A DNA stretch of 63,942 nucleotides, filler included, from a bacterium (lineage in GTDB: Bacteria > JBBIVP01): the NCBI GenBank assembly GCA_037439705.1. It is 3 parts of 3 records of this genome, joined end to end, with 100 filler letters (N's around TTAATTAATTAA, not from the genome) between each part and the next. Parts side by side here need not be neighbours in the genome. Positions count along the whole stretch, not along the records: positions 29,218 to 57,306 come from JBBIVP010000004.1; 2 more parts are not named here. One strand, written 5' to 3'. Both the position numbers and the translations under genes were made by a program. Every line of letters starts with the position of its first letter. Within the stretch, counting starts at the first letter, position 1. Shown here in pieces: positions 18,886 to 57,406 of this stretch. A model generated the notes under the pieces. It did not search any database. It worked only from the letters and a program-made list of their open reading frames with translations, and was not told the DNA's origin.

Positions 18886-18893
18886 TATATATC

Positions 18894-18922
18894 TATTTAC
18901 ATTGAATAAGAAAAAATGTCAA
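18894..18922 (-). promoter_or_regulatory. Possible sigma70 promoter for the acyl-CoA dehydrogenase
   Basis: Minus strand TTGACA-N17-TAAATA, ending 8 nt before the ATG at 18885; no SD. Confidence 0.5.
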
Positions 18923-18972
18923 GGAGATTTAAAAATAGAATTGAAGAAAAAAATTTAATAATATCTTTACCT

Positions 18973-29117: not shown

Positions 29118-29217
29118 NNNNNNNNNNNNNNNNNNNNNNNNNNNNNNNNNNNNNNNNNNNNTTAATTAATTAANNNNNNNNNNNNNNNNNNNNNNNNNNN
29201 NNNNNNNNNNNNNNNNN
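29118..29217. other. Artificial contig spacer
   Basis: N44-TTAATTAATTAA-N44; the linker has stops in all six frames. Confidence 0.98.
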
Positions 29218-31418: not shown

Positions 31419-32436
31419 CTTTTATCGCTTCATAAAAAAGGTCTATTATGTCATAAACCTCGGCTCCTGCTATTTCAAAATTCTTTCTGCATCCTGGACA
31501 GGATGTAATTATTGAATTTCCATCCTCAGCCTCCTTCAGTCTCATCCTCGTGATTTTTCTTACCATAATCGGGTCAACGAATTCCATGATTCCACCGCCA
31601 CAGCAGAAGGTGTTTTCTTTTGAGAAAAGGAATTCATGCGGCGGGTTTTCAAGGATGTATGAAAGGGCGACTCTAATATCGTCAATTTTTTCAAGAAACC
31701 TTGTCCTGTAGCAGGGGTCGTGATAATAAAAACTTTTATTAAACCTTTTCTTAATGACCGGAGAACTTTTTATAATTACTGAAATCAGGTCACGGGCGTT
31801 TGTAAATCCAAGAAATTCCCTGATGAACCACTCACATGTTGGACAGGCTGTTATTATTTCCTTTATTCCCTTCAATTTCTTTTTAAAATTTTTTGTATAT
31901 TCCTCAAACTCCTCCATATATCCCATTGAATAAAGGGGAAAACCACAGCATTTTTCCATCCTTGAAAATTCTACTCCTGCATATCTTAAAAGTTCTTCTC
32001 CCCTTTCCATGGTTTGTCTGTAAAATCCGAGATATTTACATCCCGGGAAAAATACCCTCTCCATAAAGGATGATTTTCTGAATTCTATCTCATAAGGATT
32101 TCCGTCCTTCAAAAATCTTTCAAGAATCCTTCTGCTTCCATCATCCGCTAACCCATCCCTGTTTAACTGTTCCCTTCCAAAAGGAGTATAGGAGGAAATA
32201 TCTATTCCGTGAGCACATACGGTTTTACATGCCCTGCACAGCACGCAGGAGTAGATGGTTTTTCTGATTTCGGGATTCATTTCCGTTTTTTTGTTTAAAA
32301 TTTGGTAGAGGACAAAAGCCCTGAAGGTAGGAGTTCTGGCTTCATCCGCTGTTGCTTCTGAGGCAGGACAGACAAACCTGCACATCTTCGGGCAAAATGT
32401 GCAGTATTCTATCTCTCTGCTGAATTTCTTTATCAC
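31408..32436 (-). CDS. Fe-S oxidoreductase, 2x[4Fe-4S] plus CCG domains (GlpC/GlcF-like)
   Basis: CTFCPKMCRFVCP, CVLCRACKTVC, FPGC, CCGFP, HDPC, CCGGG, SCPGC. Confidence 0.9.
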   Translation of the reverse strand: MIKKFSREIEYCTFCPKMCRFVCPASEATADEARTPTFRAFVLYQILNKKTEMNPEIRKTIYSCVLCRACKTVCAHGIDISSYTPFGREQLNRDGLADDGSRRILERFLKDGNPYEIEFRKSSFMERVFFPGCKYLGFYRQTMERGEELLRYAGVEFSRMEKCCGFPLYSMGYMEEFEEYTKNFKKKLKGIKEIITACPTCEWFIREFLGFTNARDLISVIIKSSPVIKKRFNKSFYYHDPCYRTRFLEKIDDIRVALSYILENPPHEFLFSKENTFCCGGGIMEFVDPIMVRKITRMRLKEAEDGNSIITSCPGCRKNFEIAGAEVYDIIDLFYEAIKGEG

Positions 32437-33920
32437 AGCAGTTTCCCCGGATTCATTATGTTTTTCGGGTCAATGATGCTTTTTAAAGATTTTATTATTT
32501 CGTATCCCCTTCCGTGTTCGTCCCTGAGCCATTTCCTTTTAAGAACTCCGATGCCATGATGATGACTGATTGCTCCTCCGACTCTTATACATGCTTCCAT
32601 TGCATCGTTCCATATCTTTATGTATCTTTCCTTTCTTTCCTCCGGTTTTTTTCCTCCACCTATAAATGTGAAATAAATGTTGCATCCATCCTCGTATGCA
32701 TGGGAGAAGTGAGCCATTACAAGTGCATATTTTGAGATGGCTTTCTTTATTTCAAGATAGAGGTTATAAAGCTTATCCCATGGTGATGCCACTTCCATTG
32801 TATCAGCGAAGAGCCCCATGCTGAAAATCCTTGATAGACCGAATGAAATCGAATATCTGTGTTCAAACCATTTTCTTGCATGTGTTTCTCCTTCGTCTAT
32901 TCCCTTTTCTTCTCTGCATATTTCCCGGGCAATGTCCTGAGCGGTATAGACATTTCTTCTTGTTCCCTCAAAGACCATTATTAAAAGGCACTTTCTGCTA
33001 AATCTTTCAATGAATCTGTTTGCCATTGATGGGCTTCCAATTATCCACTTCAAAACCTTTTCTCCAAATCCTCCTCCTTTTTCTCCTCCTCCCATTGATG
33101 AGACAAGGGTATCCACAGGGTCATAAAGCCTTAAAACTGCAGGTTTTGCGCCAGCCCTCATTATCTTGCGAATTGCTGAAATTCCTGAACTCAAATCTTC
33201 AAAGAAAAATGAAGAAAATCCTCTGTGCTCTGGATATGGATGTATTTTCAAAACCGCAGAAGTTATTATTCCGAGAGTCCCCTCTGAGCCTATGAAAACC
33301 TGTTTGATATCAGGACCTGTTGCACCTCGGGGAGTTTCCTTTGTTCTTAAAACACTTCCATCTGGAAGAACAACCTCTAAAGCAGTGACCATATCTTCTA
33401 TTTTGCCGTAAAGGGTGGATGCTTGTCCTGCAGACCTGGTTGAGAGCCATCCTCCAACACAGGAACAGTAGATGGATGACGGAAAATGTCCGAGGGTGTA
33501 GCCCAGTCTGTTGAGCGTTCTTTCAAACCTTTCTCCGTTTTCACCTGCTTCAACCTCTACGAGGAGGGAATATTCGTTGAGATTCCTTATTCTATCCATG
33601 AGTTTTAGGTCAACTACTATTCCGCCGTTTACAGGGATGGTTCCTCCACATACTCCTGAGCCTCCTCCGTACGGTATAACAGGAATCTCATTTTCTGAAC
33701 AGAGTTTAAGGAGATTCACCACCTCCTTAACATCTTTTACCCATACCACAGCATCTGGAAGGTTGAGTGATTCTTCCTTCATTTCCTGAATCTCTATTAA
33801 TTTTAAAGGCCAGAGGTCTCTTGAATATGCAAGAAGATGGTTGGGAGAGGTTGAAATTCTTCCCTCCACTATTCTGGAGATAGCCTCAAATAAACTCTTT
33901 TCAAGTCTTTTTTTCTCCAT
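32433..33920 (-). CDS. FAD-linked oxidoreductase, alkyl-dihydroxyacetone-phosphate synthase (AGPS)-like
   Basis: PYGGGSGVCGG, TLGHFPSS, VGGWLSTRSAGQASTLYGKIEDMV, GSEGTLGIIT, HFSHAY, ISHHHGIG, NPGKL. Confidence 0.85.
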   Translation of the reverse strand: MEKKRLEKSLFEAISRIVEGRISTSPNHLLAYSRDLWPLKLIEIQEMKEESLNLPDAVVWVKDVKEVVNLLKLCSENEIPVIPYGGGSGVCGGTIPVNGGIVVDLKLMDRIRNLNEYSLLVEVEAGENGERFERTLNRLGYTLGHFPSSIYCSCVGGWLSTRSAGQASTLYGKIEDMVTALEVVLPDGSVLRTKETPRGATGPDIKQVFIGSEGTLGIITSAVLKIHPYPEHRGFSSFFFEDLSSGISAIRKIMRAGAKPAVLRLYDPVDTLVSSMGGGEKGGGFGEKVLKWIIGSPSMANRFIERFSRKCLLIMVFEGTRRNVYTAQDIAREICREEKGIDEGETHARKWFEHRYSISFGLSRIFSMGLFADTMEVASPWDKLYNLYLEIKKAISKYALVMAHFSHAYEDGCNIYFTFIGGGKKPEERKERYIKIWNDAMEACIRVGGAISHHHGIGVLKRKWLRDEHGRGYEIIKSLKSIIDPKNIMNPGKLL

Positions 33921-33921: not shown

Positions 33922-34281
33922 TTAAGAATTTGTTTCTTTAAATTTCGTCAAAACTTTAGCATTTGAAAGGTTGACTCCGAAAGGACATACCTCTTCTCCA
34001 GAAAGAAACTCATCAACTGGAAAGGTTTCATATTGAGCGATGTCCCTTATTATGTGAGGAAGAAGGGAAATTCCCTTTTTCCCTTTTATCTCGCAGTACC
34101 CGCAGGAGATACATTTCTCCATGGACAATATTACTTCCTGAATTTCTGGTGAGAGCGGATAGATACCATCCTCCGCATAGTTTTTGATGAAACTTTTTTC
34201 TCCTTTCCTCATTCCTAAAATTTTTTTGACCTGTGCGAGAATGAAGTTGAAGGCGAGAAAAAGCCATGATTTCAGCATCAC
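33922..34281 (-). CDS. Small Cys-containing ferredoxin-like protein
   Basis: CISCGYC and a later CPFGV. ATGA-coupled to the upstream gene; 1 nt from the downstream gene. Confidence 0.65.
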   Translation of the reverse strand: MMLKSWLFLAFNFILAQVKKILGMRKGEKSFIKNYAEDGIYPLSPEIQEVILSMEKCISCGYCEIKGKKGISLLPHIIRDIAQYETFPVDEFLSGEEVCPFGVNLSNAKVLTKFKETNS

Positions 34282-34721
34282 TCCATCCCTTTTTCTTTTA
34301 TCACTCCAAAAATCTCTTTTTTATCCTTCGCTTTCAGAATGGAATTGTAGTTCTTCTTTTCCCTGAAGAAATTTGATACGAGAGAGAGTGCTTTTACAAA
34401 CCTTGCTGCGGATTCGTTATCACCGATGAGCATAAAGATGATATGGATTCCATTAATTCCGTTTTTTGCCCTTCCCATCGCACCTTTTACTCCAATGGAA
34501 ACATTGTCAAATCTTAAATGCGGTATGAGAACACCTCCTATAGCCTCTTCCTTTAACTCTTTTTCCTTTTTTAAAATTCCCGATGAAATCTCTTCTGGAC
34601 TCACAATATTTTCTATTCCTTTTGAGATGACCAGTGCGAGTTCTTCTATTGCGGATTTAATGTCCTTTCCCTTCAACTCCTCAATAATGGACTCTTCCGA
34701 GAGAAAATCTGTTATATTCAT
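34278..34721 (-). CDS. ptsN: PTS IIA(Ntr)-like protein, divergent
   Basis: MNITDFLSEESIIEEL start, GVLIPH phospho-His motif, HIIFML; directly follows hpf. Confidence 0.75.
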   Translation of the reverse strand: MNITDFLSEESIIEELKGKDIKSAIEELALVISKGIENIVSPEEISSGILKKEKELKEEAIGGVLIPHLRFDNVSIGVKGAMGRAKNGINGIHIIFMLIGDNESAARFVKALSLVSNFFREKKNYNSILKAKDKKEIFGVIKEKGME

Positions 34722-35224
34722 TTTTTCTTTTGAACTATTATTCCGTAAGACATTTTCCCCTTTCTATATACCACCGCCATCTCTCCGCTTTCTTCATCAA
34801 GGAAGGCGAGGAAGGGAAGATTGAATTCTTTCAGTTGAAGGACTGCCTCTTCCTTTGACATTGGTTTTGAGTCAAGTTCTTCTATTTCAAGCGTTTCTTC
34901 TTCAACTCTTTCAGCAGGCAACTCGGGTGTTTTTCTTTTTCTTTCTACAATTTTTTCCTTCTTTTTTCTTAGCTGAACCTTGATGGTATCCTTGATGAGG
35001 TCAATAGAGGATAGGGCATCCTTTGCTTTTTCCTTACAATATATGTTGAAGATTTTTGAACGGATGGTGCATTCCAGATTAACTCCATCTGAATCCCTGG
35101 AAAATATAAAGGACACATTGGCAGGGTCTTTGAGGCTTTTTTTAAGAAAAGCAACCCTTTTTTCCAGATAGGCTTTTGCCATTTCATCTTCTTCCATATC
35201 CCGGAATTTCACAGTGAATTCCAT
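34718..35224 (-). CDS. hpf: Ribosome hibernation promoting factor (long form)
   Basis: S30AE-like N-domain and C-terminal KPMSKEEAVLQL...VVYRK...YGII. SD GGAGG before ATG 35224. Confidence 0.85.
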   Translation of the reverse strand: MEFTVKFRDMEEDEMAKAYLEKRVAFLKKSLKDPANVSFIFSRDSDGVNLECTIRSKIFNIYCKEKAKDALSSIDLIKDTIKVQLRKKKEKIVERKRKTPELPAERVEEETLEIEELDSKPMSKEEAVLQLKEFNLPFLAFLDEESGEMAVVYRKGKMSYGIIVQKKK

Positions 35225-35472
35225 TCTTTCCTCCTTTTTTCTTTGCTCATAGTTAAAGATTACACCATTCTTATTTTTTTTCAAATTAAAAATTTATTAC
35301 CCATCCTGTGTGCTTCTATATTTTTTATCTTTTTGGCGAGCCAAATCTCCAAGCCCTTCCTTAAGGAGAACCATAAAATTATAAATCCCTTGGTTTAAAA
35401 AGCGCCGAGCCCCTGAATTATCTCATTCAAAATTGTAAAATGTAGCATAAGTATATAACTTGTATATTCCAC

Positions 35473-35501
35473 TTGACAATATATCAAAAAGAGTGTATCT
35501 A
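35473..35501 (+). promoter_or_regulatory. Possible promoter of the PadR operon
   Basis: Perfect TTGACA at 35473-35478, N17, weak -10 TATCTA; SD GAGGT before ATG 35512. Confidence 0.5.
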
Positions 35502-35511
35502 TTAGAGGTAT

Positions 35512-36192
35512 ATGGGTTTAGCAGAGGCAATACTCGGGCTTTTATACGAGAAGCCCAAAACGGGTTATGAGATAAAGAAGTTCTATAGAGACACCATAAG
35601 GCATTTCTGGAATGTGAGTGACGGTCAGCTCTACCCAACCCTTAAAAAAATGACAGAGGAAGGTTTGATTGTAAAGAAGGAAACCAGAGAAGATGAGGGA
35701 TTGAAAAAGCACATCTACTCAATTACACAGAAGGGAAAAGACAGGTTTATGGCATGGCTTAAAAAACCGGTGGACAAATTTGAGGAGATGAAGGAGCCGT
35801 TTCTCATCAAACTCTTCTTTTTTGACAGGCTCTCAGACGAGGACAAACTTTATCACCTTAAGGTTCAGCTTGATGTTCATCAGGAGGTTTTGAATGAGTT
35901 TCTTGATGTTAAAAAGTTTTATGATGAGACCCTTTCGGAATATCAGAAAATCATCATTGACCTGGGAATCCTTTATGTTCAGGTAAGAATTTTTCTCCTT
36001 TTGAGGCTTACGGATATTATAAAAAACAAAAAGCAAGAACCCTTCCTTCCCGAAAGAATGCCCGAGCTTTTGTGGAAACTCTATCACATAATTTTTTCCG
36101 GTGAAAAACTTGAAAAGTATTTTAAAAACGAATTTTTCAACCTTAAGGTAGAGGAAATAGAAAAAACATTTGGGAGGAGAGATGAAAAATAA
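35512..36192 (+). CDS. PadR family transcriptional regulator (AphA/PadR-s1 type)
   Basis: AILGLL...TGYEIKK...FW...GQLYPTL...YSITQKG...FLIKLFF. Confidence 0.93.
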   Translation: MGLAEAILGLLYEKPKTGYEIKKFYRDTIRHFWNVSDGQLYPTLKKMTEEGLIVKKETREDEGLKKHIYSITQKGKDRFMAWLKKPVDKFEEMKEPFLIKLFFFDRLSDEDKLYHLKVQLDVHQEVLNEFLDVKKFYDETLSEYQKIIIDLGILYVQVRIFLLLRLTDIIKNKKQEPFLPERMPELLWKLYHIIFSGEKLEKYFKNEFFNLKVEEIEKTFGRRDEK

Positions 36193-37279
36193 AAAGGTGG
36201 TGATTGTAGGGGCAGGATTGAGCGGACTTACCGCAGGGATTTTTCTTGCAAAAAGGGATTATGATGTTCTCATTGTTGAAAGGGGAAAGGGAATAGGAGA
36301 GGGAGACCCATTTCACCCATCCCTTCATGTGACACCCTGTGACCTCCTTTATCTAAAAAGGGAAGTGGAGATAGAATTTGAGAAGGTTTTTAAGACCATA
36401 AAATGGACGAAGTTGTGGACGCTTGATAAACCCTGGATATCGGATGACCCGCTTGTTATGGGAATAGAAAGGGGAAAAAGGGAAAGTTCTGTGGATTACT
36501 TTCTTTACAATGAGGCAAAGAAACTCGGTGTTAAATTTAATTTCTCAACTGAAATAAAAAAGATTGACGACGTGCCTCCCGGTTCTATAATTGCAACGGG
36601 ATTTAACAAGAAAGTATATTCTTTATTCGGAAGGAAATGCTCTGACCTTGATGGATTTTATTACAGAAAACCTTCAAAAGAAGAGGAGGAAGGAACCGCT
36701 CACCTCTTTGCGGGATATTATACAACGGACTATTTTTACAGGACAAGTCTCAACGGAATCACATTTGGTCTTCTCTTTTCAAGGAAGCCTATAACAAAGA
36801 AAGGAGAGGAAGAGTGGCTAAAGGATATGGAAGAGAAGATAGGTGAGGTTCCTGAAAAATACATCCGCTTCAGGGCTTCAATGGATTTGAGCAAACCAAT
36901 TCTTTTTTTCAACGACAGAATATGTGCTGGAACATTTTCCGCAACGATTGACCCATCACTCGGATTTGGTATCTTCGGCGCAATTCTTTCAGGAAAAATT
37001 GCAGGGATAGCAGTTTACGATAAGGAAAAGGCTTTAAAGGAATTTAAGAGGGTAAACAGATTTTTCCACATAGTCAAATTTCTATGGTATGATAATCAGT
37101 GGACTCCTTACAGGTTACATCTTGCAAAAATTCAGATGCGGTTCTGGCGGCTTTTTTATCCCATGCTTTTGATTACAGGAAGGTCAATACCTGGATTTCC
37201 GCAAAACTACATGATTCATGGGTTTAAGAGAACAAGACCATATAAAGAGGAGGTAGAGCAATGCCGAGAATATACATAA
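36182..37279 (+). CDS. NAD(P)/FAD-dependent oxidoreductase (geranylgeranyl-reductase/FixC-like)
   Basis: VVIVGAGLSGLTA Rossmann fold, IIATG, IDPSLGFGIFGAILSG. SD GGAGG before ATG 36182. Confidence 0.8.
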   Translation: MKNKKVVIVGAGLSGLTAGIFLAKRDYDVLIVERGKGIGEGDPFHPSLHVTPCDLLYLKREVEIEFEKVFKTIKWTKLWTLDKPWISDDPLVMGIERGKRESSVDYFLYNEAKKLGVKFNFSTEIKKIDDVPPGSIIATGFNKKVYSLFGRKCSDLDGFYYRKPSKEEEEGTAHLFAGYYTTDYFYRTSLNGITFGLLFSRKPITKKGEEEWLKDMEEKIGEVPEKYIRFRASMDLSKPILFFNDRICAGTFSATIDPSLGFGIFGAILSGKIAGIAVYDKEKALKEFKRVNRFFHIVKFLWYDNQWTPYRLHLAKIQMRFWRLFYPMLLITGRSIPGFPQNYMIHGFKRTRPYKEEVEQCREYT

Positions 37280-38055
37280 ACGACTGGCCCCCATTTTCGC
37301 CGCCTGACCAGTCAAGGAGAAACAATGTGATAGAGGCGGCAAAACTCATTGTGAATGCAGCGATGACAGCTCCAAATGCTGGCGGGGTTTCTCAGGTTGA
37401 GGCCGAGATAGTTTACGGAATGGAGGAACAGGAGCAGATAGCAAGGAAGATGGAGGATCTCGCTCATGAGGAATCACAGGAACACATCTCCCATTTGTAC
37501 AAATATGAGGCTGTTATGGTGAGGGAAGCAGACTGCATAGTTTTTCTTGGAGATTTCAGGACGATAGAAACGCCAATGGATGCGGGATGCGGGTTCTGCT
37601 ATGGGGTTGATGATTGCAGGTGGCTTTACACAAAACATCCATCATACATGGGGCTCATTGATGCAACGGACAGGAGGTCAAAAACCGTTGTGAAGGGGCC
37701 ACTTTGCGGGGTGAGGGTTCAGGATTTTGGATATGCCATAGGCTCTGCAATGTGGATGGCTTACCACCTTATGATTGATGCAAGACCATATTACACAGTT
37801 GGAGTGGCAGGACAGAAGCTCGGTTATTGCCCCAATTCTCCAATTGTCGTTGGAATCCTTCTTGCAGCCCTCTCAAAGAATCCTTTCGTTGATGTGAATA
37901 CTGCTTACCACCTTGTGAACATGAGCAAATTGATTGATGCGGTTAGAAAAACCTACATCCTTTTCAGACAGTCTGGCGGAGATTACAGAATTTCTGACCC
38001 GTGGGCTGAGATTTTCAGGGAAAGGAAAAAGAAGGAAAAGAAAGAAGAAAAGTAG
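37261..38055 (+). CDS. DUF2148 ferredoxin-domain protein (paralog 1)
   Basis: AAMTAP, CGFCYGVDDC, GPLC, DFGYAIGSA, IDARPYYTVGVA, SKNPF. Confidence 0.8.
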   Translation: MPRIYINDWPPFSPPDQSRRNNVIEAAKLIVNAAMTAPNAGGVSQVEAEIVYGMEEQEQIARKMEDLAHEESQEHISHLYKYEAVMVREADCIVFLGDFRTIETPMDAGCGFCYGVDDCRWLYTKHPSYMGLIDATDRRSKTVVKGPLCGVRVQDFGYAIGSAMWMAYHLMIDARPYYTVGVAGQKLGYCPNSPIVVGILLAALSKNPFVDVNTAYHLVNMSKLIDAVRKTYILFRQSGGDYRISDPWAEIFRERKKKEKKEEK

Positions 38056-38064
38056 GAGGAGAAG

Positions 38065-38889
38065 ATGGCGATAAAATTTGAAAAACTTCAGGAGGAAACA
38101 TTAATAGATGTGGCAAAACTGTGTGCTACTTCTGTCCTCAAAGCCCCACAGATAACAGGAAGGGTAAAGTTTGAGATGGAGATTCTTAAAATGGATGAAC
38201 TGCCAAATCTGATAGAGGCACTGATGATTCTTGGAAGGCTTCATATGTTCTGCATGCTTTCAGCTGCTGCCTATTCAACGGTTCTTCAGGAAGGAAAGCC
38301 CGTGGTAATTCTTTTAATAGGGGCATCCGGATTGAGAACCTCTGAATTGAACTGGAACTGCGGAGCCTGCGGTTTCAAAACCTGTGGTGAATTTAATGCC
38401 TATTCAAAGACGATAAAAGAACCTCCTCCGGGAGCGCTCATTCACGGTCCTGTATGTAACTGGAAGATGATCGATTACGCACAGGGATGCACATGGGCGT
38501 GTGCTACTGCATGGGCAAATAACATAACGAACAGGATTGAAATAGCCTCTGGAATGGCTGCAAAGGCAATAGGTTATCTTGAGAACTGCGATGTGGTTCA
38601 CGGACTCCCGCTTGGTCCAATGGAAGAACTTTACTGGTATTCAAGGAGGTTTATAAATCAGTTTATGACTTACGATATGTGGAAGGAGAGGCTTCAGGAT
38701 ATGTTCGGAGTTCTGTTCCAGACATTTGTTGGCGATGGAAGGGCGGACATTAAAATAACAGATGACTGGTGGATGAGGAGACATACGAACAAGGTTCAGC
38801 CAATTAATATGGAGGAATTTGAGGAAATGAATAAAGGAATTGCAAGGGATATTGAGGAATTGAAGAAGAGGGTTAAAGGTGGAAAATAA
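38065..38889 (+). CDS. DUF2148 ferredoxin-domain protein (paralog 2)
   Basis: KAPQITG, NCGACGFKTC, GPVC, ITNRIEIASGMAA, GLPL. Confidence 0.8.
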   Translation: MAIKFEKLQEETLIDVAKLCATSVLKAPQITGRVKFEMEILKMDELPNLIEALMILGRLHMFCMLSAAAYSTVLQEGKPVVILLIGASGLRTSELNWNCGACGFKTCGEFNAYSKTIKEPPPGALIHGPVCNWKMIDYAQGCTWACATAWANNITNRIEIASGMAAKAIGYLENCDVVHGLPLGPMEELYWYSRRFINQFMTYDMWKERLQDMFGVLFQTFVGDGRADIKITDDWWMRRHTNKVQPINMEEFEEMNKGIARDIEELKKRVKGGK

Positions 38890-38904
38890 AGAAGGAGGTT
38901 AGCC

Positions 38905-39315
38905 ATGCCGAAGTTTCCATCCATGGAATGGGGTGAGGCGTTGAAGGAGGTTATAAACAGCGACCCGGAAATAAGGGAGGCAGGGAAGGATTTTGAGGCT
39001 GATGCTGTCCTTGTGATAGAGCCAGCAGGCGGATTGAGGGAGAGATTCATTGTATATGTGAAGGGTTCAGGTGGTGTTATTCAGGAAGTCAGACAGCTCA
39101 ATAGCCCCGATGAGGTTCCCGCAAAGTTTGTAACCAGCGCAGACTATCTTACATGGAAATCAATAATAAAGGGGGAACTGGACGGAGTGAAAGCACTTCT
39201 CATGGGAAAGGTGAAGTTGAAGGGAGATATGAAAGAGGTTATGAAAAGGGCAAAGGACCAGCAGTTGATGATGAAGGCTCTTTCAAAAATAAAAACAGAA
39301 TTTATAGATGAATAA
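38905..39315 (+). CDS. SCP2 domain protein
   Basis: FPSMEW...IN, ADYLTWKSIIKGELDGVKALLMGKVKLKGDM. Confidence 0.88.
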   Translation: MPKFPSMEWGEALKEVINSDPEIREAGKDFEADAVLVIEPAGGLRERFIVYVKGSGGVIQEVRQLNSPDEVPAKFVTSADYLTWKSIIKGELDGVKALLMGKVKLKGDMKEVMKRAKDQQLMMKALSKIKTEFIDE

Positions 39316-39317
39316 AA

Positions 39318-40622
39318 ATGGAAAAAGAACTTAAAAAAGAACTGGAAAGAATTGTAGGAAAGGAGGGAGTTGTTTATGAAAGGAGAAGGCAGAAGGAACT
39401 TCTTGGTGGCATGCCACCAAAAGATTCCATTGTTCTTCTTCCATCAGGCCATGAGGAGATTGCAGAAATTTTAAAAATGGCAAATTCAAGAAAAATTCCT
39501 GTCAGGACCACATATTACGGAAGTTTTGATCCAAAATCCCTTTCAGAGGGTGGCATCTTTCTTCTTTTCACACGGATGAAGAAAATTGAAAATCTTGATG
39601 TAAAAAATCTTGTTGCACACATTCAGAGAGGAGTAACCTTTGAGGAATTAAAAGAAGCATTAAAAGAACACAATCAAAAAATTCTGCCACCTGCAAATGT
39701 CTATAGCGATTCTGTAGTTGAAACCTACCTGATGAGGTCGGTTCAGTATGCTATGAACAGATATCCTGACACTCAGTTCACAAACCTTTATGCTGTGCTT
39801 CCGTCAGGAGATATATACAGAACTGGAAGCCATATCCTTTCCGAAAAAATTGCGGACTGGAAGGATGAACCCGGTCCGCACATCTGTAAGATGTATCACG
39901 CCTCCGAGGACATATTCGGAATTGTATCCCGTGCGAGCATTCAAGCATTTCCATTGATGGAAATGAGAAAGGCAAAGGTATTTCACTTTCTTGATATGGA
40001 AAAAGCACTTGAATTCTTGAAATGGGTTTCCAGAAAGGAACTCGTTCAGGAAGGGGTTCTTCTGAATTCAAAAGAATGGACAAATTTTTCAAAAGTCTCA
40101 TACTTTGAGGGATGGGTTTCAATATGCGGATTTGAATCTTTTGCAAAGCATGTGGAGTTTCAGATAAGAAAGGTTTCGGAGAAGGCAAAAGAGATGGGAG
40201 GAGTTCAGGTTGATGATGGAGATGAACTGGGCCTAAAATTCATTGAAACCCCTGGAAAAGCATCTCTTGAAGATACTATTGAGTTCTTTTCCCTTTTCAA
40301 AGACCTGAAATTTTTTGATGAATTGCTTAAAGAGGATTTAGGGAAAAAAGGAATTGAACCAAAGGATGTAAGAACCTGTTATATAAGTTGCTCAACTGGA
40401 AGATGTGTATATGCAAAATGCACAATCCCGATAAAAGACAGACAGCTTGTGGTTGATTCTTACAGATTCCTGCTCAGAAACGGTGCTTTCGTGGACAGAC
40501 TTGTGGATGGTGTTGCTGAAGAATATTATTCAAAGAATAACCTCCGGGTTCTTATAGAAAAGTTGAAATCCACGATTGACCCATTTTTCATTCTTAATCC
40601 CCAAAAATTTTTAGAGGTGTAA
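39318..40622 (+). CDS. FAD-binding (PCMH/VAO fold) protein, degenerate
   Basis: VLLPS..EEIAEILKMAN, GVTFEEL, VLPSGDIYRTGS, GPHI...SEDIFGIV, IDPFFILNP; several Gly-rich FAD motifs are eroded. Confidence 0.75.
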   Translation: MEKELKKELERIVGKEGVVYERRRQKELLGGMPPKDSIVLLPSGHEEIAEILKMANSRKIPVRTTYYGSFDPKSLSEGGIFLLFTRMKKIENLDVKNLVAHIQRGVTFEELKEALKEHNQKILPPANVYSDSVVETYLMRSVQYAMNRYPDTQFTNLYAVLPSGDIYRTGSHILSEKIADWKDEPGPHICKMYHASEDIFGIVSRASIQAFPLMEMRKAKVFHFLDMEKALEFLKWVSRKELVQEGVLLNSKEWTNFSKVSYFEGWVSICGFESFAKHVEFQIRKVSEKAKEMGGVQVDDGDELGLKFIETPGKASLEDTIEFFSLFKDLKFFDELLKEDLGKKGIEPKDVRTCYISCSTGRCVYAKCTIPIKDRQLVVDSYRFLLRNGAFVDRLVDGVAEEYYSKNNLRVLIEKLKSTIDPFFILNPQKFLEV

Positions 40623-40624
40623 AA

Positions 40625-42169
40625 ATGAGCTGGAATAAATTTTTTGGAGAGAGAAAGGAAAATTTGAATAAAGCAAAGGATGAGCTTAAAAAACTTCTCG
40701 GTGAAGAAAGGGTTTCGGATAACCCTGCGGTTCTTGTCTGTTATTCCCACGATTTTACTCCAGAAGCGGGAAGAATGCCCAATATTGTTGTTCTTCCAGA
40801 AACAACAGAGGAGGTTTCAGAGATAGTTAAAATAGCGAATAAATATGAAATTCCTGTTTATGTGATAACCACAGGATACAACCACGGAGGAATGTGGATA
40901 CCGAAGAGGGGAGGAATAATGGTGGACCTCAAAAAAATGAATTCCGTCTGCGAAATAGACGAGGAAAGCATGACAGCAACCATTTCCCCTCATGTCAGAA
41001 TTGCCTCCCTTTATGAAGAAAGCAACCAGAGAACTTCGGTTGACGATATAAAACTCAGACCAGCCAATCCGATAACAATGGGAAGCGTTTCAATGCTCTC
41101 AAACTATGTGTCAGGTGGTGCCTCACATATTGCCTATAAAACAGGGAATCATCATGAAAACATAGTCGGAATGACATGGGTTATGCCGGATGGTTCAATT
41201 GTAAAAACCGGCGTTGATTCTTATCCCTTTAAAGGAAAAATTCCCTATCTCGGTCCTGGTCCAGATGTGGGAGGAATATTTCTTGCCTCTCAGGGGAGTT
41301 ATGGGATATGCACGGAAATTACTGTGAAACTTTTCAATGAGATGCCAAGGGAGAAACTCTGCGCTATTTCTCAGGAGGATATCTATTCATTTGACCTTGA
41401 AAAAATAAGTGAGTTCTTTTATAAGGCAGGGAGAGAGAATTTCATTCATGACTTCTACAAAAGCGGTTCAAGGCATGGAGCATCCGTTTCCTTCGCGCCG
41501 GTGGTTGAGGAGGTTCTTGATATGCAACCGGTTCATGTTGTTGTTGTAACCTTAACAGGTATTGACGATGAGGAACTTCAGATAAAATATGAAAGGCTCA
41601 AGGAGATAGTTGATAGCATTCCCGGTCTTATGCTACTTCCGGACGAATCCTTTCAACTGATGGTTCAGGCATTCAACTGGGATATAGAGGAGGCAAAAAG
41701 ATGCCTGTTTAAGAGGTTGTGGAGGGGAAACAGGGTGATGAGGTGGAGGGGGTCTTTTCAGTGGGTAGCCTTTCCAAGCAAGTTTGAACACATTCCATAT
41801 CTTGAAAAGAAAATAAGGGATTTGATCGCAAGATACTGGATACCAACGGACTTATCCCTTGAACCATCAAGGGTGCCATTTCAGGTTTCCCTTCAGGGAC
41901 CATTTCCAATGTCAAGAATGATAGCGCTTGAGTTTGATTTCTGGGTTGACCACACAAATCCCGAAGAGGTGAAAAGAACATCAATGCTTTTCAGAAAAAT
42001 TGTGGAAGAAATGATAAAGGAGGGGGCTGTTGTTGGAAGAACTGTCGCTTTAAGCCAGGAGATTCAGTTGCCAAAACTTGGAATTTATTATACCATTGTC
42101 AAGGATATAAAGAAAAAATTGGACCCAAAAAATATACTTTCTCCTGACACACTGCCTTTGGGAGATTAA
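40625..42169 (+). CDS. FAD-binding oxidoreductase, VAO/PCMH family
   Basis: VVLPETTEEV, TGYNHGG, VDLKKMN, MPDGSIVKTG, GPGPDVGGIFLASQGSYGICT, LDPKNILSP. Confidence 0.88.
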   Translation: MSWNKFFGERKENLNKAKDELKKLLGEERVSDNPAVLVCYSHDFTPEAGRMPNIVVLPETTEEVSEIVKIANKYEIPVYVITTGYNHGGMWIPKRGGIMVDLKKMNSVCEIDEESMTATISPHVRIASLYEESNQRTSVDDIKLRPANPITMGSVSMLSNYVSGGASHIAYKTGNHHENIVGMTWVMPDGSIVKTGVDSYPFKGKIPYLGPGPDVGGIFLASQGSYGICTEITVKLFNEMPREKLCAISQEDIYSFDLEKISEFFYKAGRENFIHDFYKSGSRHGASVSFAPVVEEVLDMQPVHVVVVTLTGIDDEELQIKYERLKEIVDSIPGLMLLPDESFQLMVQAFNWDIEEAKRCLFKRLWRGNRVMRWRGSFQWVAFPSKFEHIPYLEKKIRDLIARYWIPTDLSLEPSRVPFQVSLQGPFPMSRMIALEFDFWVDHTNPEEVKRTSMLFRKIVEEMIKEGAVVGRTVALSQEIQLPKLGIYYTIVKDIKKKLDPKNILSPDTLPLGD

Positions 42170-42187
42170 AGATGAAAGGAGGGAAAA

Positions 42188-43555
42188 ATGAAGGATAGAC
42201 CTTACTGGAACATGGAAATAGAGCCCCTTCTGGGGACAAAAGGAATGAAAGAGATTCAGTGGAGAAACCTGAAGTCTCATCTTGAGATGCTTTATGCAAA
42301 ATCAAGATTGTGGAGGGAATACATGGACGAGAAATCCGCTCCTCCCGAGAAGATAAAAAGCCTTGAAGACTTTTCAAAAGCCTTTCCTGTTCTTGAGAAG
42401 GATGATATGAGGGCTATTGTGATGAAGTTTCTCCCCGAAGGACCAAGGGGAATGCTTGATGCCATGCTTTGTGTTTCATCAAGGGAGATAGTTCTTGTTT
42501 CTGCTACATCAGGAACCACAGGAGAGCCCACACCCTATCTGTTCAGCAAGGAGGATTTAAAAATCAATTTTGAAAGCTTTGCGAGAGCTATATGGAGGAC
42601 AGGAATAAGACCGGGAGATATAATTGTCCATGCAATGGCTTTGAGTATGTTTGGAGCTGGAATTCCTCTTGTTTATGCAGTGATTGAATTCGGAGCAACA
42701 CTTATTCCTGTTGGAGCGGAAGGTGGAACGGAAAGACTTTTGAATTACATAAAGGTTTTGGGACCTATGGAAGGAATAGACGGTATGTTCATTACTCCAT
42801 CTTTTGCAGAGTACTTGATTGAAAAGTGTAAAGAGCTTACGGGTATGGAAGTAAAGGATTTGAGGATAAAAAGGCTTATGTGTGGAGGTGAACCCGGAGC
42901 AGGAATTCCAGAGGTGAGAGAGAGGCTTATGAAGAATTACAATGCCCTTGTGTTTGATATGATGGGACTTGGTCCAATTGCCTTCACATCCTGTCCAACA
43001 GAAGAGTACATAGGAATGCATTTTATAACAGAAGATATGGCTCTTCTTGAAATAGTTGATGTGGAAACGAAAGAGCCAATTCCTTTGGAAGATGGTGCGA
43101 GAGGAGTTCTCGTCTTCACACCTCTTAAAGGATATTGCCTCAATGTTTTAAGGCATACACCCGGAGATGTGGTTGAGATATACACAGATAAATGTCCGTG
43201 CGGTCAATCTGGAATAAGAATGAAGGTTATTGGAAGAACAGATGATATGCTGAAGGTAAAGGGCGTAATGGTTTATCCTGCTGCGATAGAGGGTGTTTTA
43301 AACTCATTCGTTCCAAGGATAACTGGAGAATTTCGTATAGTTCTTACATCCCCGCCTCCAAGGGTTGAGCCACCATTGAAATTAAAAATTGAATATGGAA
43401 AGGATACAAAAACCGAGGAACTTGCTAAATTAGCAAAAGAGATAGCAGAGAGGATGCACGATAAAATAAGGGTGAGACCTGAAATAGAATGGGTTCCACC
43501 TCAGAGCCTTGAGAGGACGGTTCATAAGAAAAAATACTTTGAAAGGAGGTATTAA
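42188..43555 (+). CDS. Phenylacetate-CoA ligase (PaaK-like) family aryl-CoA ligase
   Basis: ATSGTTGEP, TPSFAEYL, GGEPG, CPCG, GRTDDMLKVKGVMVYP. Confidence 0.9.
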   Translation: MKDRPYWNMEIEPLLGTKGMKEIQWRNLKSHLEMLYAKSRLWREYMDEKSAPPEKIKSLEDFSKAFPVLEKDDMRAIVMKFLPEGPRGMLDAMLCVSSREIVLVSATSGTTGEPTPYLFSKEDLKINFESFARAIWRTGIRPGDIIVHAMALSMFGAGIPLVYAVIEFGATLIPVGAEGGTERLLNYIKVLGPMEGIDGMFITPSFAEYLIEKCKELTGMEVKDLRIKRLMCGGEPGAGIPEVRERLMKNYNALVFDMMGLGPIAFTSCPTEEYIGMHFITEDMALLEIVDVETKEPIPLEDGARGVLVFTPLKGYCLNVLRHTPGDVVEIYTDKCPCGQSGIRMKVIGRTDDMLKVKGVMVYPAAIEGVLNSFVPRITGEFRIVLTSPPPRVEPPLKLKIEYGKDTKTEELAKLAKEIAERMHDKIRVRPEIEWVPPQSLERTVHKKKYFERRY

Positions 43556-43972
43556 ATGCCACCATCTTTTCTTGTAAACAAAGAATTCTTTGAACAGATT
43601 GATGGAGAGATCAAACTCGCGGGTTCAAAATGCGAGAGCTGTGGAAAGGTTTATTTTCCCAGAAAAAATTTCTGCTTGAACTGTATGAGCGATAAATTGA
43701 AGGTAGTGCCATTGAGCAAAAGGGGAAAAATAGCCAGCTGGACAGTTGCGAGACAGATCTATACATACGGAATACCACTCCCTTATGCCTTCGGATATGT
43801 TGACCTCCCTGAGGGAGTGAGGCTCTTCACAATTTTTACAGATTGTGAGCCATTTGAAGAAAAACTGAAAACAGGTAAAGAGGTTGAATGGGTGATAAAA
43901 AAATTCAAGGAGGATGAAATGGGAAATGACATAATAGGTTATATGTTTCGTCCTCTGGAGGGAAAAAAATGA
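43556..43972 (+). CDS. DUF35 Zn-ribbon/OB-fold protein
   Basis: CESCGKVYFP...CLNC, GKIASWT, PYAFGYVDLPEG. Confidence 0.92.
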   Translation: MPPSFLVNKEFFEQIDGEIKLAGSKCESCGKVYFPRKNFCLNCMSDKLKVVPLSKRGKIASWTVARQIYTYGIPLPYAFGYVDLPEGVRLFTIFTDCEPFEEKLKTGKEVEWVIKKFKEDEMGNDIIGYMFRPLEGKK

Positions 43973-45135
43973 GAAAAGTATATGTAGTGGGCGGTGGTAT
44001 TATAAAGTTTGGAAAATTTCCCGACAGGGGGATAAGGAAAATGGCTGAAGAGGTTCTTTTTAACCTCTTTAAGGATACGGGTGCAAAGCCATCTGATGTT
44101 GAATCTGCTTATGTAGGTTCTCAGAATACTGCCTGTGATGATACCCTTATGATGGTCGGTCAGATAGCGCTTGAGCAGGCAGGAATAGTTGGAATTCCTG
44201 TGACAAACTGCACAAATGCCTGCGGAAGCGGTTCAAATGCTGTTCATCAGGCGTGGCTTGCAATTCAATCGGGTTTATATGATGTAACGCTCGCTCTTGG
44301 AATTGAAAAGATGTCCAATCCCCTTTTACCGCAGGCAATGATGGCTGGAAGGTTGGGAGGAGGAGATTCAGAAATAGAAGGAGTGTTCGGACTTTTTGCA
44401 CCGGGAATATTCGGGATGATAGCAAAAAGGCACATGGAAGAATACGGAACCACAAGAGAGCAGATGGCAAAAGTTGCTGTGAAGAACAGGTTCAATGCGA
44501 GTTTGAATCCCACAGCTCAGTATCAGACCCCAACCACAATTGAGGAGGTTTTATCTTCAAAAGTTGTTGCAGACCCACTAACCGTTCTTGAGTGCTCTCC
44601 AATTTCAGATGGTGCTGCTGCTGTCCTTCTCGCCTCAGAGGATGCGGTGAAAAGGTTCTCTGGAAAGCCTGTCGAGATAATCGCTTCCGTTCAGGTCTCA
44701 GGAACATATTCAATCACTGACCTTTTGAATGTTGACACCACAAGAAGAGCAGCAAAGAAGGCTTATGAGATGGCTGGAGTTGGTCCTGAAGACATAGACC
44801 TTGCAGAGGTTCATGATTGTTTCAGCATAGCGGAGATAGTTCACTATGAGGAACTCGGTTTTTGCAAAAAGGGTGAAGGGGGAAGATTTATAGACAGCGG
44901 TGCTCCATTTCTTGGTGGAAAAAAGCCCGTGAATACAAGCGGAGGGCTCATTGCAAAAGGGCATCCCCTTGCAGCAACAGGAGTTGCCCAGATTGTGGAG
45001 ATTCTATACCAGTTGAGGGGACAGGCTGGAAAAAGACAGGTTGAGAATGCAAGGATTGGACTAACTCATAACGGAGGAGGATTCCGGAAGGGAGATACAG
45101 GAATCGTCTGCATCCATATATTGAAAAAGGTTTAA
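43969..45135 (+). CDS. SCP-x-type thiolase family protein
   Basis: NACGSG (catalytic Cys), CSPISDGAAA, EVHDCF, KGHPLAATG, HNGGG. Confidence 0.92.
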   Translation: MRKVYVVGGGIIKFGKFPDRGIRKMAEEVLFNLFKDTGAKPSDVESAYVGSQNTACDDTLMMVGQIALEQAGIVGIPVTNCTNACGSGSNAVHQAWLAIQSGLYDVTLALGIEKMSNPLLPQAMMAGRLGGGDSEIEGVFGLFAPGIFGMIAKRHMEEYGTTREQMAKVAVKNRFNASLNPTAQYQTPTTIEEVLSSKVVADPLTVLECSPISDGAAAVLLASEDAVKRFSGKPVEIIASVQVSGTYSITDLLNVDTTRRAAKKAYEMAGVGPEDIDLAEVHDCFSIAEIVHYEELGFCKKGEGGRFIDSGAPFLGGKKPVNTSGGLIAKGHPLAATGVAQIVEILYQLRGQAGKRQVENARIGLTHNGGGFRKGDTGIVCIHILKKV

Positions 45136-45375
45136 AATCGAAAGAACGATGATGTTAGTGGAGAGCACTTTGAAAGAAGTAGGGCTTACCAACGAATCCC
45201 ATTCGCAAAAAATAAAAATTGGGGAGAAGAACCTCAAAAATACCCACGAGGCCATAACAATGTGTGTCCACTACATAAGTATTCAAATAACAAGAAAGGT
45301 GGTCTTGAGCGTTTCTCTTGAATTTTCATAAAAATTTAAATAAATTTTAGACATGGTGTTAAAATATGAAAGGGG

Positions 45376-45927
45376 GTGATTGAAACAATACCGCTTGACC
45401 ACATATTGAGCTGGATGGTTGGACTTCTTTTTGCCCTCGCGTCAAAAAATGCGCAAAAGAACTCTTCCTCTCCTTTTAACAGATACTTCAAAAGAGGACT
45501 CCTCTATCAAATTTTTGTCTTCTTACTCATAGGTTTTTATCTTGCAACGGTATGGCCCGCGTGGAGCTGGATGTATTTCATAAATCCTGAGGAAAAAACC
45601 GCTCTTACCTATCTTCTTGTTCTATGTTATGTCCTGAGTTATTTGGTTTCATTCGTAGTCGGTTGGGTTCTCATAAAGAAAAATCTGGAAAAAGCTGTAT
45701 ATACGATTTTTGGTTTCCTCATTTTTATGTTCCTTTTGCTAACTTTCGGATTTCTGAACAGAATTATGCATGTGGGAGGATATGAAGAATTTGTGGATGG
45801 ATTTGCAAGAGATGCCTTCAATTATCCAGAGTTCATGTGGAGCATGACTGTTATAGGAATTTATTTCTTTGTTCCCCTGATATTCCTTCTCAGAAAAACC
45901 TATAAAGAGACTACTCCTTGGGCTTAA
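45376..45927 (+). CDS. Hypothetical membrane protein
   Basis: 183 aa, about 5 TM segments, WPAWSWMYF motif; GTG start after AGGGG. Confidence 0.7.
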   Translation: MIETIPLDHILSWMVGLLFALASKNAQKNSSSPFNRYFKRGLLYQIFVFLLIGFYLATVWPAWSWMYFINPEEKTALTYLLVLCYVLSYLVSFVVGWVLIKKNLEKAVYTIFGFLIFMFLLLTFGFLNRIMHVGGYEEFVDGFARDAFNYPEFMWSMTVIGIYFFVPLIFLLRKTYKETTPWA

Positions 45928-46796
45928 TCCGAACTTCTCAATAGCTCAAGAAGGGCAACAAGTTCTGAGGGAAGAGGAACGGAAAAACTGTGAGTTTTAA
46001 GACTTTGAGGGTGGGCAAAGGAAAGACTGAACGTATGAAGGGCAAGGCGAGGAAAAATCACACATTTCTTTTTTGAATTTATTAGATATTTTTTCTCTCC
46101 CACTAATGGATATCCCATTTCGGAAAACTGAATTCTTATCTGATTTGTCCTTCCTGTCTTTGGATGAATCTCTACAAAGGTTGTCCATTTATGTCTTTCT
46201 TTTACGAAAAATTCCGATTCTCCATACTCACCTGTTGCTTTCATTATCCCCTTTATTATGCCTTTTTCCTTATTGAGAACTCCGTTTAAAATTGCAAGAT
46301 AGCTTTTCTTCACCCTTCTTTCCTTAAACTCCTTTTTGAGAAATTCCGCCGATTTCTTATTTTTTGCAAAAACCATAACACCCGATGTCTCTCTGTCTAA
46401 GCGATGAACTGGAAATACTTCTTCTGTGTGGGCTGTCAAAAAGTCTTTAAGTGGACCTCCACTATCCTTTTCTTCAGGAGAAAGAAAACCCGACGGTTTA
46501 TTTATGACAATTATGTTCTCATCCTCACAAATAATTTCTGGAGCATTATCCTTTTTATCAAAAAATGCAAAAAGAATATTCCTTATAAAAATTTTATCAC
46601 CTTCCTGTATCTTTTTTGATGGGAAATTTACAATTCTGTCATTTACAAGAATTCCTCCTGCTTCTATCAGCATTTTTGTGAACTTCATTGATGGAATGAG
46701 ATTTCTCCTGAAAATAACCCTGTCAAGCCTCAAGAGTTCATCCGAAGGCCCTGCAGTAAATAACTTCTCTTTGATTCTAAAAACCTTTAATTCCAT
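45924..46796 (-). CDS. RluA/RluD family pseudouridine synthase with S4 domain
   Basis: RLD-type S4 start, INKPSG, VHRLDRETSG, TGRTNQIR, LALH. Confidence 0.93.
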   Translation of the reverse strand: MELKVFRIKEKLFTAGPSDELLRLDRVIFRRNLIPSMKFTKMLIEAGGILVNDRIVNFPSKKIQEGDKIFIRNILFAFFDKKDNAPEIICEDENIIVINKPSGFLSPEEKDSGGPLKDFLTAHTEEVFPVHRLDRETSGVMVFAKNKKSAEFLKKEFKERRVKKSYLAILNGVLNKEKGIIKGIMKATGEYGESEFFVKERHKWTTFVEIHPKTGRTNQIRIQFSEMGYPLVGEKKYLINSKKKCVIFPRLALHTFSLSFAHPQSLKTHSFSVPLPSELVALLELLRSSD

Positions 46797-57306: not shown

Positions 57307-57406
57307 NNNNNNNNNNNNNNNNNNNNNNNNNNNNNNNNNNNNNNNNNNNNTTAATTAATTAANNNNNNNNNNNNNNNNNNNNNNNNNNNNNNNNNNNNNN
57401 NNNNNN
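57307..57406. other. Artificial contig spacer
   Basis: N44-TTAATTAATTAA-N44. Confidence 0.98.

Follow-up and report, generated by a model that had tools for sequence, protein, structure and literature searches.

Gene clusters for the anaerobic catabolism of acyl-CoAs are of a known kind, and several described systems resemble parts of the locus analyzed here, a run of ten genes at positions 35512–45135 of a stretch of 63,942 nucleotides (the window) from the bacterium JBBIVP01 (GenBank assembly GCA_037439705.1). These systems include the benzoylsuccinyl-CoA thiolase BbsAB of the anaerobic toluene pathway; the archaeal complex of acetoacetyl-CoA thiolase, HMG-CoA synthase, and a DUF35 protein; peroxisomal branched-chain β-oxidation by SCPx/SCP2; flavoenzymes of the GlcDEF/LctD/D-lactate-dehydrogenase type; the p-cresol methylhydroxylase (PCMH)/vanillyl-alcohol oxidase (VAO) group of 4-alkylphenol oxidoreductases; the geranylgeranyl reductase (GGR) and FixC flavoproteins of the PHBH fold; and the nitroreductase/FMN-reductase superfamily. 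What is not of a known kind is the pair of DUF2148 genes at the center of the locus and the combination of genes in which it stands. No paper in the literature searched mentions DUF2148, COG4739, or PF09918, and none, judged by its title and the start of its abstract, describes the gene set; to that extent, the preliminary description of this DNA, which knew of no pathway with these genes, agrees with what we found. We judge the chances to be evenly balanced that the ten genes form one substrate-inducible, oxygen-independent, CoA-dependent catabolic operon for a hydrophobic acid.

The window joins three contigs, C3 (1–29117), C4 (29218–57306), and C122 (57407–63942), through N spacers at 29118–29217 and 57307–57406, so gene adjacency across the spacers carries no meaning; the ten-gene region lies entirely within C4. 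All ten genes named in the preliminary description are open reading frames on the + strand, with families on which Pfam agrees:

35512–36192, + strand: PadR regulator, 226 aa (PF03551, with a Vir_act_alpha_C-type C-terminal domain)
36170–37279, + strand: GGR-like FAD Rossmann protein, 369 aa, TTG start (N-terminus by Pfam; GGR/PHBH-type fold from a predicted model)
37261–38055, + strand: DUF2148a, 264 aa (PF09918, 61.0 bits against a threshold of 25)
38065–38889, + strand: DUF2148b, 274 aa (PF09918, 43.3 bits against 25)
38905–39315, + strand: SCP2 lipid- or acyl-CoA-binding protein, 136 aa (PF02036, E 2e-8, 34.9 bits against 21.3)
39318–40622, + strand: VAOa, 434 aa, a divergent FAD_binding_4 subunit (PF01565, E 2e-14)
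40625–42169, + strand: VAOb, 514 aa, FAD_binding_4 subunit (PF01565, E 1.5e-23)
42188–43555, + strand: PaaK-like acyl/aryl-CoA ligase, 455 aa (PF14535, AMP-binding_C_2, and PF00501, AMP-binding)
43556–43972, + strand: DUF35 protein, 138 aa, zinc ribbon and OB fold (PF12172, zf-ChsH2, and PF01796, OB_ChsH2_C)
43969–45135, + strand: SCP2-type thiolase, 388 aa (PF22691 and PF00108)

Calculated from the coordinates, the successive junctions measure −23, −19, +9, +15, +2, +2, +18, 0, and −4 nt. Overlaps or gaps of under 20 nt had been claimed throughout, which is right for the gaps (at most 18 nt) and for most of the overlaps, one of which measures 23 nt. The paired paralogs claimed for the locus are borne out, with 22% identity between DUF2148a and DUF2148b over ~247 aligned positions (E 8e-9) and 26% between VAOa and VAOb (E 3e-16). 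A promoter scan gave 24 promoter-like sites against 22.1 ± 4.9 in shuffled sequence, i.e., no difference, and no terminator-like site was found on the + strand within 35000–46200. The unit probably ends at 45135, since the stretch 3′ of the thiolase differs in L092, a metagenome contig whose VAOb is 93% identical to that of the window. From the packing of the genes, the ten probably constitute a single predicted operon, a lineage-specific arrangement of a set that is found again and again in strict anaerobes.

Further evidence comes from the neighborhoods of related genes. The genome comparison covered 40 other genomes, none related more closely than ‘same domain’. DUF2148 loci were collected by a pattern-limited scan of 185,579 species genomes, which found relatives at 122 places and from which 80 loci were kept, and a reciprocal scan, which took VAOb as its seed and covered metagenome contigs, found 534 relatives, with 79 loci kept. 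The open reading frames of all loci were clustered, one representative of each cluster was scanned with Pfam, and the families were re-mapped by tblastn; neighbors were counted on the same strand and within 7 kb in the 36 loci flanked on either side by 7 kb or more.

DUF2148b follows DUF2148a in 76 of the 80 loci, and the four exceptions end at contig edges. A CoA ligase (PaaK-like or AMP-binding) accompanies the pair in 30 of the 36 fully flanked loci and an SCP2-type thiolase in 29, the two occurring together in 27; an acyl-CoA dehydrogenase is found in 20, SCP2 or a divergent SCP2-like protein in 18, DUF35 in nine, a short-chain dehydrogenase/reductase (SDR) in nine, and an enoyl-CoA hydratase in four. 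At the core of the conserved set stands the long DUF2148a/b pair, along with a CoA ligase and an SCP2-type thiolase; an SCP2-like protein and a flavin dehydrogenase often join them. Sigma-54 activators, TRAP transporters, electron-transfer flavoprotein (ETF), old yellow enzyme (OYE)-type reductases, and Amidohydro_2 proteins are also recurrent neighbors of the pair, and TetR, ABC transporters, MMPL with DUF1302, and aldehyde:ferredoxin oxidoreductase occur in relatives; the activators, TetR, both kinds of transporter, MMPL with DUF1302, and the aldehyde:ferredoxin oxidoreductase make up a catabolic context. NCBIfam gave no specific name to a CrtI-like flavoprotein, a 365-aa Fer4 protein, or several neighbors of 320–460 aa.

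As for the arrangement of the genes, L092 has the identical ten in the identical order. The closest genome relative (G023/L012) has the GGR-like gene, DUF2148a (66% identity), DUF2148b, SCP2, PaaK-like ligase, DUF35, and thiolase in the order of the window, followed by an SDR, with neither PadR nor the VAO pair in the cluster. In L018, the order is padR, VAOb, VAOa, CCG iron-sulfur protein, GGR-like, SCP2, DUF35, thiolase, DUF2148a, DUF2148b, Fer4, AFOR_N, and SDR, while an arrangement of thiolase, PaaK-like ligase, VAOa, CCG, VAOb, and DUF35 is common to L063, L067, L094, L095, and L100 and is closed by the GGR-like gene in L094, L095, and L100. The DUF2148 pair stands on the opposite strand in L095 and L100 (divergent upstream) and in L063 and L067; in L067, the divergent genes are DUF2148a, DUF2148b, CrtI-like, Fer4, and acyl-CoA dehydrogenase, and TetR, MMPL, and DUF1302 lie nearby in L100. 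L093 reads TetR, SCP2, VAOa, CCG, VAOb, aldehyde:ferredoxin oxidoreductase, Fer4, CCG, ABC transporter, radical-SAM/GNAT, GGR-like, and PaaK-like. That the set is met in at least four different orders speaks for a single functional unit. A neighborhood search had been proposed as a check on the preliminary description, and conservation elsewhere is what it found: all ten genes in L092 and nearly the same set, shuffled, in other lineages. PadR and the VAO pair do not survive as defining parts; they are accessory, since the G023 cluster has neither, and the VAO pair is present in only 4 of the 80 DUF2148 loci (L017, L018, L063, L067).

The search seeded with VAOb closes the circle from the other side, in that its closest matches bring back the GGR-like gene, the PaaK-like ligase, thiolase, DUF35, SCP2, and the DUF2148 pair. 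Among the ten best of these loci (L092–L101), of which four are on contigs under 6 kb, the DUF2148 pair is present in three, the ligase in five, and the GGR-like gene in five. None of the remaining 69 has DUF2148, and most consist of a VAO gene beside CCG, often with a second VAO gene.

The DUF2148 family itself comes without functional names. DUF2148a matches 283 homologous protein clusters (90% identity) at E 0.001 or better; all 120 homologues listed carry PF09918, measure about 250–280 aa, and lack a functional name, and in the ESM Atlas, the matches listed are likewise all unnamed DUF2148 clusters. Homologue alignments contain four invariant cysteines in each subunit, i.e., Cys110, Cys113, Cys119, and Cys149 in DUF2148a and Cys99, Cys102, Cys107, and Cys131 in DUF2148b. 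With the model of DUF2148a (pLDDT 91.6), Foldseek returned 66 matches at E 0.001 or better, with the nitroreductases NfsA, FRP, and IYD at the top. The first 46 entries of a VIA search (Z 8.3–13.7) all belong to the nitroreductase superfamily, among them IYD (5ko7; Z 13.7, root-mean-square deviation (rmsd) 4.3 Å over 145 residues), and two members acting on C=C bonds, the enone reductase CLA-ER (4qlx; Z 10.7, rmsd 4.7 Å, 152 residues aligned) and the heteromeric cyclodipeptide oxidase AlbAB (8uc3; Z 9.9, rmsd 4.3 Å, 140 residues aligned). The predicted structure of DUF2148a is a nitroreductase fold with an inserted four-cysteine motif. A DUF2148a/b heterodimer is also predicted, with an ipSAE of 0.79 (best control 0.00), a mark that 116 of 157 solved complexes and 2 of 215 mismatched pairs attained; across runs, contact agreement was at least 96% and partner pLDDT at least 84. 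The modelled interface includes the cysteine loops and the central helices, so that the two chains would assemble through central helices as in nitroreductase dimers. Unlike that superfamily, DUF2148 has no sequence-level similarity to its members, carries an inserted four-cysteine motif in each subunit, and would form an obligate heterodimer of paralogues.

Eight loci (L074, L076, L079, L084–L086, L089, L091) encode DUF2148b as a fusion with a GltD-like NAD(P)H/iron-sulfur module (Pyr_redox_2 and Fer4_20), a protein of ~770 aa. The usual neighbors of this subfamily are an HTH-cupin regulator, DUF169, and an AMP-binding ligase; it seems to represent a separate and equally uncharacterised use of the DUF2148 pair, and the fusions fit a catalyst and an electron carrier alike. 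Another DUF2148 match in the window's own genome lies on contig C219 (1344–2576, 42% identity).

The ligase belongs to a wider PaaK-like group (AMP-binding_C_2, 50.2 bits against 25) and falls under the cut-offs of the PaaK models proper (TIGR02155, 160.9 bits against 646.3; NF041878, 200.7 against 700); its best solved relatives, 4r1l and the 2-hydroxyisobutyryl-CoA synthetase 6hdw, are equally close. The DUF35 protein, with four cysteines invariant in the homologue alignment, is the presumed partner of the thiolase. For the latter, the best solved relatives are SCP2-thiolase type-1 (6hsj, 3e-77), an archaeal thiolase (6esq, 2e-72), and BbsB (7pxp, 6e-66), and the motifs are NACGSG at residue 83, HDCF at 282, and GHP at 331. 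HDCF is an SCP2-thiolase motif according to PMC12329534, on which the reading of the motifs is based, and the cysteine of NACGSG would occupy the nucleophile position; the three motifs together argue for an SCP2-type true thiolase and not an Ltp2/Sal aldolase.

Compared with described thiolase systems, the locus shares with BbsAB the adjacent DUF35 and SCP2-type thiolase genes, and BbsA is the only NCBIfam match of the DUF35 protein. Membership of BbsAB, to which the preliminary description had likened the pair, fails on the scores (BbsA, 80.9 bits against 250; BbsB, 250.6 against 750), and the operon is without the CoA-transferase, acyl-CoA dehydrogenase, hydratase, and SDR pair of the toluene pathway. 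The archaeal complex likewise combines a thiolase with DUF35, and the window's thiolase reaches 376 bits on AcCoTHIOL_METTL; that score is under the cut-off of 600, however, and the operon has no HMG-CoA synthase. A search for HMG-CoA synthase (PF08540) found none in the 88.4%-complete genome and was positive in 4 of 14 control genomes, which makes a mevalonate role of the thiolase and DUF35 unlikely. With peroxisomal SCPx/SCP2 β-oxidation, taken here from general knowledge, the operon has in common an SCP2 carrier and an SCP2-type HDCF thiolase; its SCP2 is a separate protein, and the oxidase, the bifunctional enzyme, and the oxygen-dependent steps are absent, so the analogy is one of logic only.

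The two VAO subunits are fused in L017 (a 987-aa VAOa::VAOb protein, followed by a CCG protein) and in P0122–P0124. VAOb is rare, with 52 of 1.84 billion representatives at E 1e-30 or better, some of them fusions of ~950–980 aa. Its closest solved relative is PchF, the flavoprotein subunit of PCMH (E 8e-31); the match lies chiefly in the FAD domain (residues 12–244), with a second, weak stretch at residues 437–508 (23 bits). When VAOb is aligned to 1dii_A with HMMER, Tyr95 of PchF falls in a gap, Tyr473 pairs with Gly, and Arg474 pairs with Arg; these three residues we take to be the phenolate-binding triad. The VAO pair had been read as oxidizing alkylphenol side chains, a reading for which we find no support: two of the three residues are not retained, and relatives pair VAO with CCG, which lies between or beside the VAO genes in L017, L018, L067, L093–L095, L100, and L101. 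From the PCMH/VAO oxidoreductases, the pair further differs in having no cytochrome c subunit and in forming, by its sequence, a heteromer with a degenerate paralogue. The pair may instead resemble GlcD/GlcE: the GlcDEF type also has two paralogous FAD_binding_4 subunits, with CCG in the relatives, and LctD (7qh2_C) matches at 4e-17. On the other side, Pfam sees no FAD-oxidase_C cap in VAOa or VAOb, and the GlcD model reaches 59–89 bits against a cut-off of 568. Elsewhere in the genome, contig C158 (1151–4867) encodes VAOa-like, VAOb-like (39% identity), and CCG proteins, and C27 (7878–11622) encodes VAO, CCG, and VAO.

The GGR-like protein, of a rare family (28 clusters), has sequence matches over its Rossmann N-terminus only, and it carries a GxGxxG motif. 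Its model (pLDDT 92.8) has as best folds GGR Ta0516 (3oz2; E 6e-17, TMq 0.66), Sulfolobus GGR, and FixC (7koe_C), and 4opu and 3atq are also among the GGR/FixC folds matched. As to the divergent SCP2-like neighbor family of ~132 aa, 15 of its 21 members match PF02036 at E 1 or better (best 8.8e-5), and profile–profile comparison with the SCP2 of the window gave a probability of 0.8%.

The pathway that we propose would run as follows. PadR would hold the operon off until a hydrophobic ligand arrives, and the PaaK-like ligase, going by its family, would convert a free carboxylic acid into its CoA thioester. Three flavin or iron-sulfur enzymes would then tailor the acyl chain by redox chemistry without oxygen: the GGR-fold flavoprotein may reduce or introduce a C=C bond; the modelled DUF2148a/b heterodimer may reduce a C=C bond, carry out an α,β-dehydrogenation, or feed electrons to such a step; and VAOa/VAOb, as a GlcD/GlcE-like dehydrogenase, may oxidize a hydroxyl or alkyl carbon. 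The DUF35/SCP2-type thiolase pair would split the resulting 3-oxoacyl-CoA, and SCP2 would carry the intermediate, which would be poorly soluble. As substrate, a bulky hydrophobic acid is the most likely, and it may be methyl-branched or resemble an isoprenoid. The GGR fold and the pairing of SCP2 with an SCP2-type thiolase suit a hydrophobic compound, perhaps with a branched or isoprenoid-like chain, better than an alkylphenol, and the MMPL and DUF1302, TetR/PadR, CrtI-like flavoproteins, and aldehyde:ferredoxin oxidoreductase of relatives point the same way. The proposal also draws on the genome, in which homologues of acyl-CoA dehydrogenase, thiolase, ETF, and OYE-type enzymes are numerous. 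Of the oxygen-independent route of CoA ligation, redox activation, thiolysis, and SCP2 transport first suggested for the locus, the logic remains plausible and no oxygenases are present, while its alkylphenol oxidation by the VAO pair is not supported.

Several points weigh against this proposal. The ten genes include no enoyl-CoA hydratase or 3-hydroxyacyl-CoA dehydrogenase, so a full turn of β-oxidation cannot be written from them; the missing steps would either be supplied in trans or be replaced by an uncharacterised enzyme of the operon. The nature of the substrate is inferred only, and the thiolase is about equally near to the biosynthetic archaeal acetoacetyl-CoA thiolase and to catabolic ones. 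The GGR-like protein scores 32.8 bits on TIGR02032 (cut-off 158.8), over residues 10–132 only, its sequence has no YxWxFP string, which we take to be a geranylgeranyl reductase motif, and folds of Group-A monooxygenases match it almost as well; its predicted likeness to GGR is at fold level only. Neither the operon nor L092 has a CCG gene, the nearest CCG lying at 31408–32436 (− strand) beside a GlcD-like gene. With the DUF2148a profile, a sequence search of the PDB gave 0 matches at E 1 or better, and hhalign against nitroreductases from the same loci gave a probability of 0.9%, over the A-P-x-x-G/N helix region; moreover, solved nitroreductase homodimers exist, and the predicted heterodimer may echo likeness to them.

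A different division of labor would leave the pathway otherwise as proposed and make DUF2148a/b an electron-transfer module, ETF- or ferredoxin-like, through which the flavin dehydrogenases (acyl-CoA dehydrogenase, VAOa/b, GGR-like) would be connected with NAD(P)H or ferredoxin. The four-cysteine motifs of both subunits, with their loops at the modelled dimer interface, would suit such a role, as would the GltD-like fusions in eight loci, the position of the pair, which in many loci directly adjoins acyl-CoA dehydrogenase and in the window and G023 adjoins the GGR-like gene with stop and start overlapping, and the lack of ETF genes in the operon. We nevertheless consider it rather unlikely: the known nitroreductase-fold proteins among the fold-search matches are catalysts, most of the GltD-fused loci (L076, L079, L084–L086, L089, L091) have no neighboring acyl-CoA or other flavin dehydrogenase, and ETF genes adjoin the pair in L026, L044, L047, and L062, where a second carrier would be redundant. 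An aromatic route, in which an alkylphenol or phenylalkanoate is hydroxylated in its side chain by the PCMH/VAO-type enzyme, ligated to CoA, and thiolysed, as with p-ethylphenol or toluene (Bbs), we regard as unlikely. It draws on the PCMH subunits as the closest solved relatives of VAOb, the PaaK-like ligase, the BbsA match, and the OYE/naphthoyl-CoA-reductase-like enzymes, Amidohydro_2 proteins, and TRAP transporters that adjoin some DUF2148 loci; PadR regulators, moreover, frequently respond to phenolic acids. Against these stand the retention of Arg474 alone from the presumed triad, the confinement of the strong PCMH match to the FAD domain, the missing cytochrome subunit, the GlcDEF-like coupling of both VAO subunits with CCG in relatives, the Bbs and PaaK scores far under their cut-offs, and the GGR fold, SCP2, and relatives' MMPL and DUF1302, which indicate lipid-like substrates.

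If the locus were instead biosynthetic, the thiolase/DUF35 pair would condense acyl-CoAs in the style of the archaeal complex or PhlABC, and the GGR-like, DUF2148, and VAO proteins would tailor an SCP2-borne lipid or isoprenoid. With the archaeal acetoacetyl-CoA thiolase, both model and structure, the thiolase does score almost as well as with anything else, the GGR fold is, we presume, biosynthetic in archaea, and a polyprenyl synthetase lies downstream in L018. This reading is very improbable given the missing HMG-CoA synthase in both cluster and genome, the catabolic, substrate-inducible kind of regulators and transporters around relatives, the prevalence of a free-acid CoA ligase in the fully flanked loci, and the acyl-CoA dehydrogenase, ETF, and aldehyde:ferredoxin oxidoreductase next to relatives. 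Finally, unrelated modules of two or three genes might lie head to tail by chance and share no pathway, and the absence of the VAO pair and PadR from G023 and the variable gene order across lineages could be read so; it is barely credible when the same families come together in at least four orders across lineages, ligase and thiolase accompany most fully flanked DUF2148 loci, and the reciprocal search from VAOb recovers the same gene families.

Returning to the catabolic operon, a bolder version of it, which we hold to be decidedly unlikely, would make DUF2148a/b a new class of heterodimeric nitroreductase-fold iron-sulfur enzyme for oxygen-independent redox chemistry on bulky acyl-CoAs, i.e., C=C reduction or desaturation, or a radical-type hydration in place of the absent hydratase. 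The enzyme, the GGR-fold protein, the GlcDE-like VAO pair, SCP2, and the SCP2-type thiolase would then form an anaerobic pathway, as yet undescribed, by which sulfate reducers, syntrophs, and Dehalococcoidia use lipids that are methyl-branched or of isoprenoid origin, such as phytol- or archaeal-lipid-derived acids.

Upstream of the operon, two candidate regulatory features were identified:

35473–35501, + strand: candidate promoter, TTGACA, 17 nt, TATCTA (consensus match only)
35463–35483, + strand: inverted repeat TATATT-N9-AATATA, candidate operator, overlapping the −35 hexamer

PadR matches PF03551 at 65.2 bits (gathering score 27; E 5e-18) and PF10400 at 26.5 bits (22.4; E 1e-5). Its homologues lead related loci (49–50% identity in L015 and L018, 90% in L092), and PadR, as found in the window and these three loci, is one among several alternative regulators of the set.

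On the − strand, 31408–33920, a canonical GlcD-like dehydrogenase (FAD_binding_4 and FAD-oxidase_C, 495 aa) adjoins a CCG protein (342 aa), at a distance of 1.6 kb from the operon on its upstream side; the same pair is upstream in L092, a similar one precedes the VAO cluster of L093, and a CCG gene stands directly before padR in L018. The pair could be the source of a CCG partner for the operon's VAO subunits. Between it and padR (33922–35284, − strand) lie an hpf-like gene (S30AE/sigma-54 modulation), a PTS EIIA-2 gene (ptsN-like), and a 119-aa open reading frame, which look like the tail of an rpoN-type cluster. At the other end, 240 nt past the operon, a 183-aa open reading frame (45376–45927, + strand) has hydrophobic segments and no family match; it does not follow the thiolase in L092 and is therefore probably outside the operon. 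Among relatives, a radical-SAM/GNAT fusion lies beside the L018 cluster (16493–19418), with NCBIfam matches to the MSMEG_0568/MSMEG_0567 (Sll0786) ‘nitrogen starvation’ families, and another, by Pfam domains only, directly before the GGR-like gene of L093 (18290–19807); an AIR-synthase-like gene is also present in L018.

By the labels of the sequence records, the 80 DUF2148 loci come from Desulfobacterota/‘delta’ (49), Bacillota (14), Dehalococcoidia (3), Nitrospinota (1), and Geothermincolia (1), with five labelled ‘Proteobacteria/Pseudomonadota bacterium’ and seven unclassified. The long DUF2148 pair is widespread, mostly in Desulfobacterota, Desulfotomaculia-type Bacillota, and Dehalococcoidia, organisms that in sediments, aquifers, and hydrothermal systems mineralize organic matter resistant to breakdown. 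An uncharacterised redox enzyme that is conserved in company with a ligase and a thiolase probably flags a class of substrate whose anaerobic degradation is not understood, and three cultured carriers among the Bacillota, Desulfotruncus arcticus DSM 17038 (L042), D. alcoholivorax DSM 16058 (L072), and Desulfallas sp. Bu1-1 (L065), make the question of the pathway testable.

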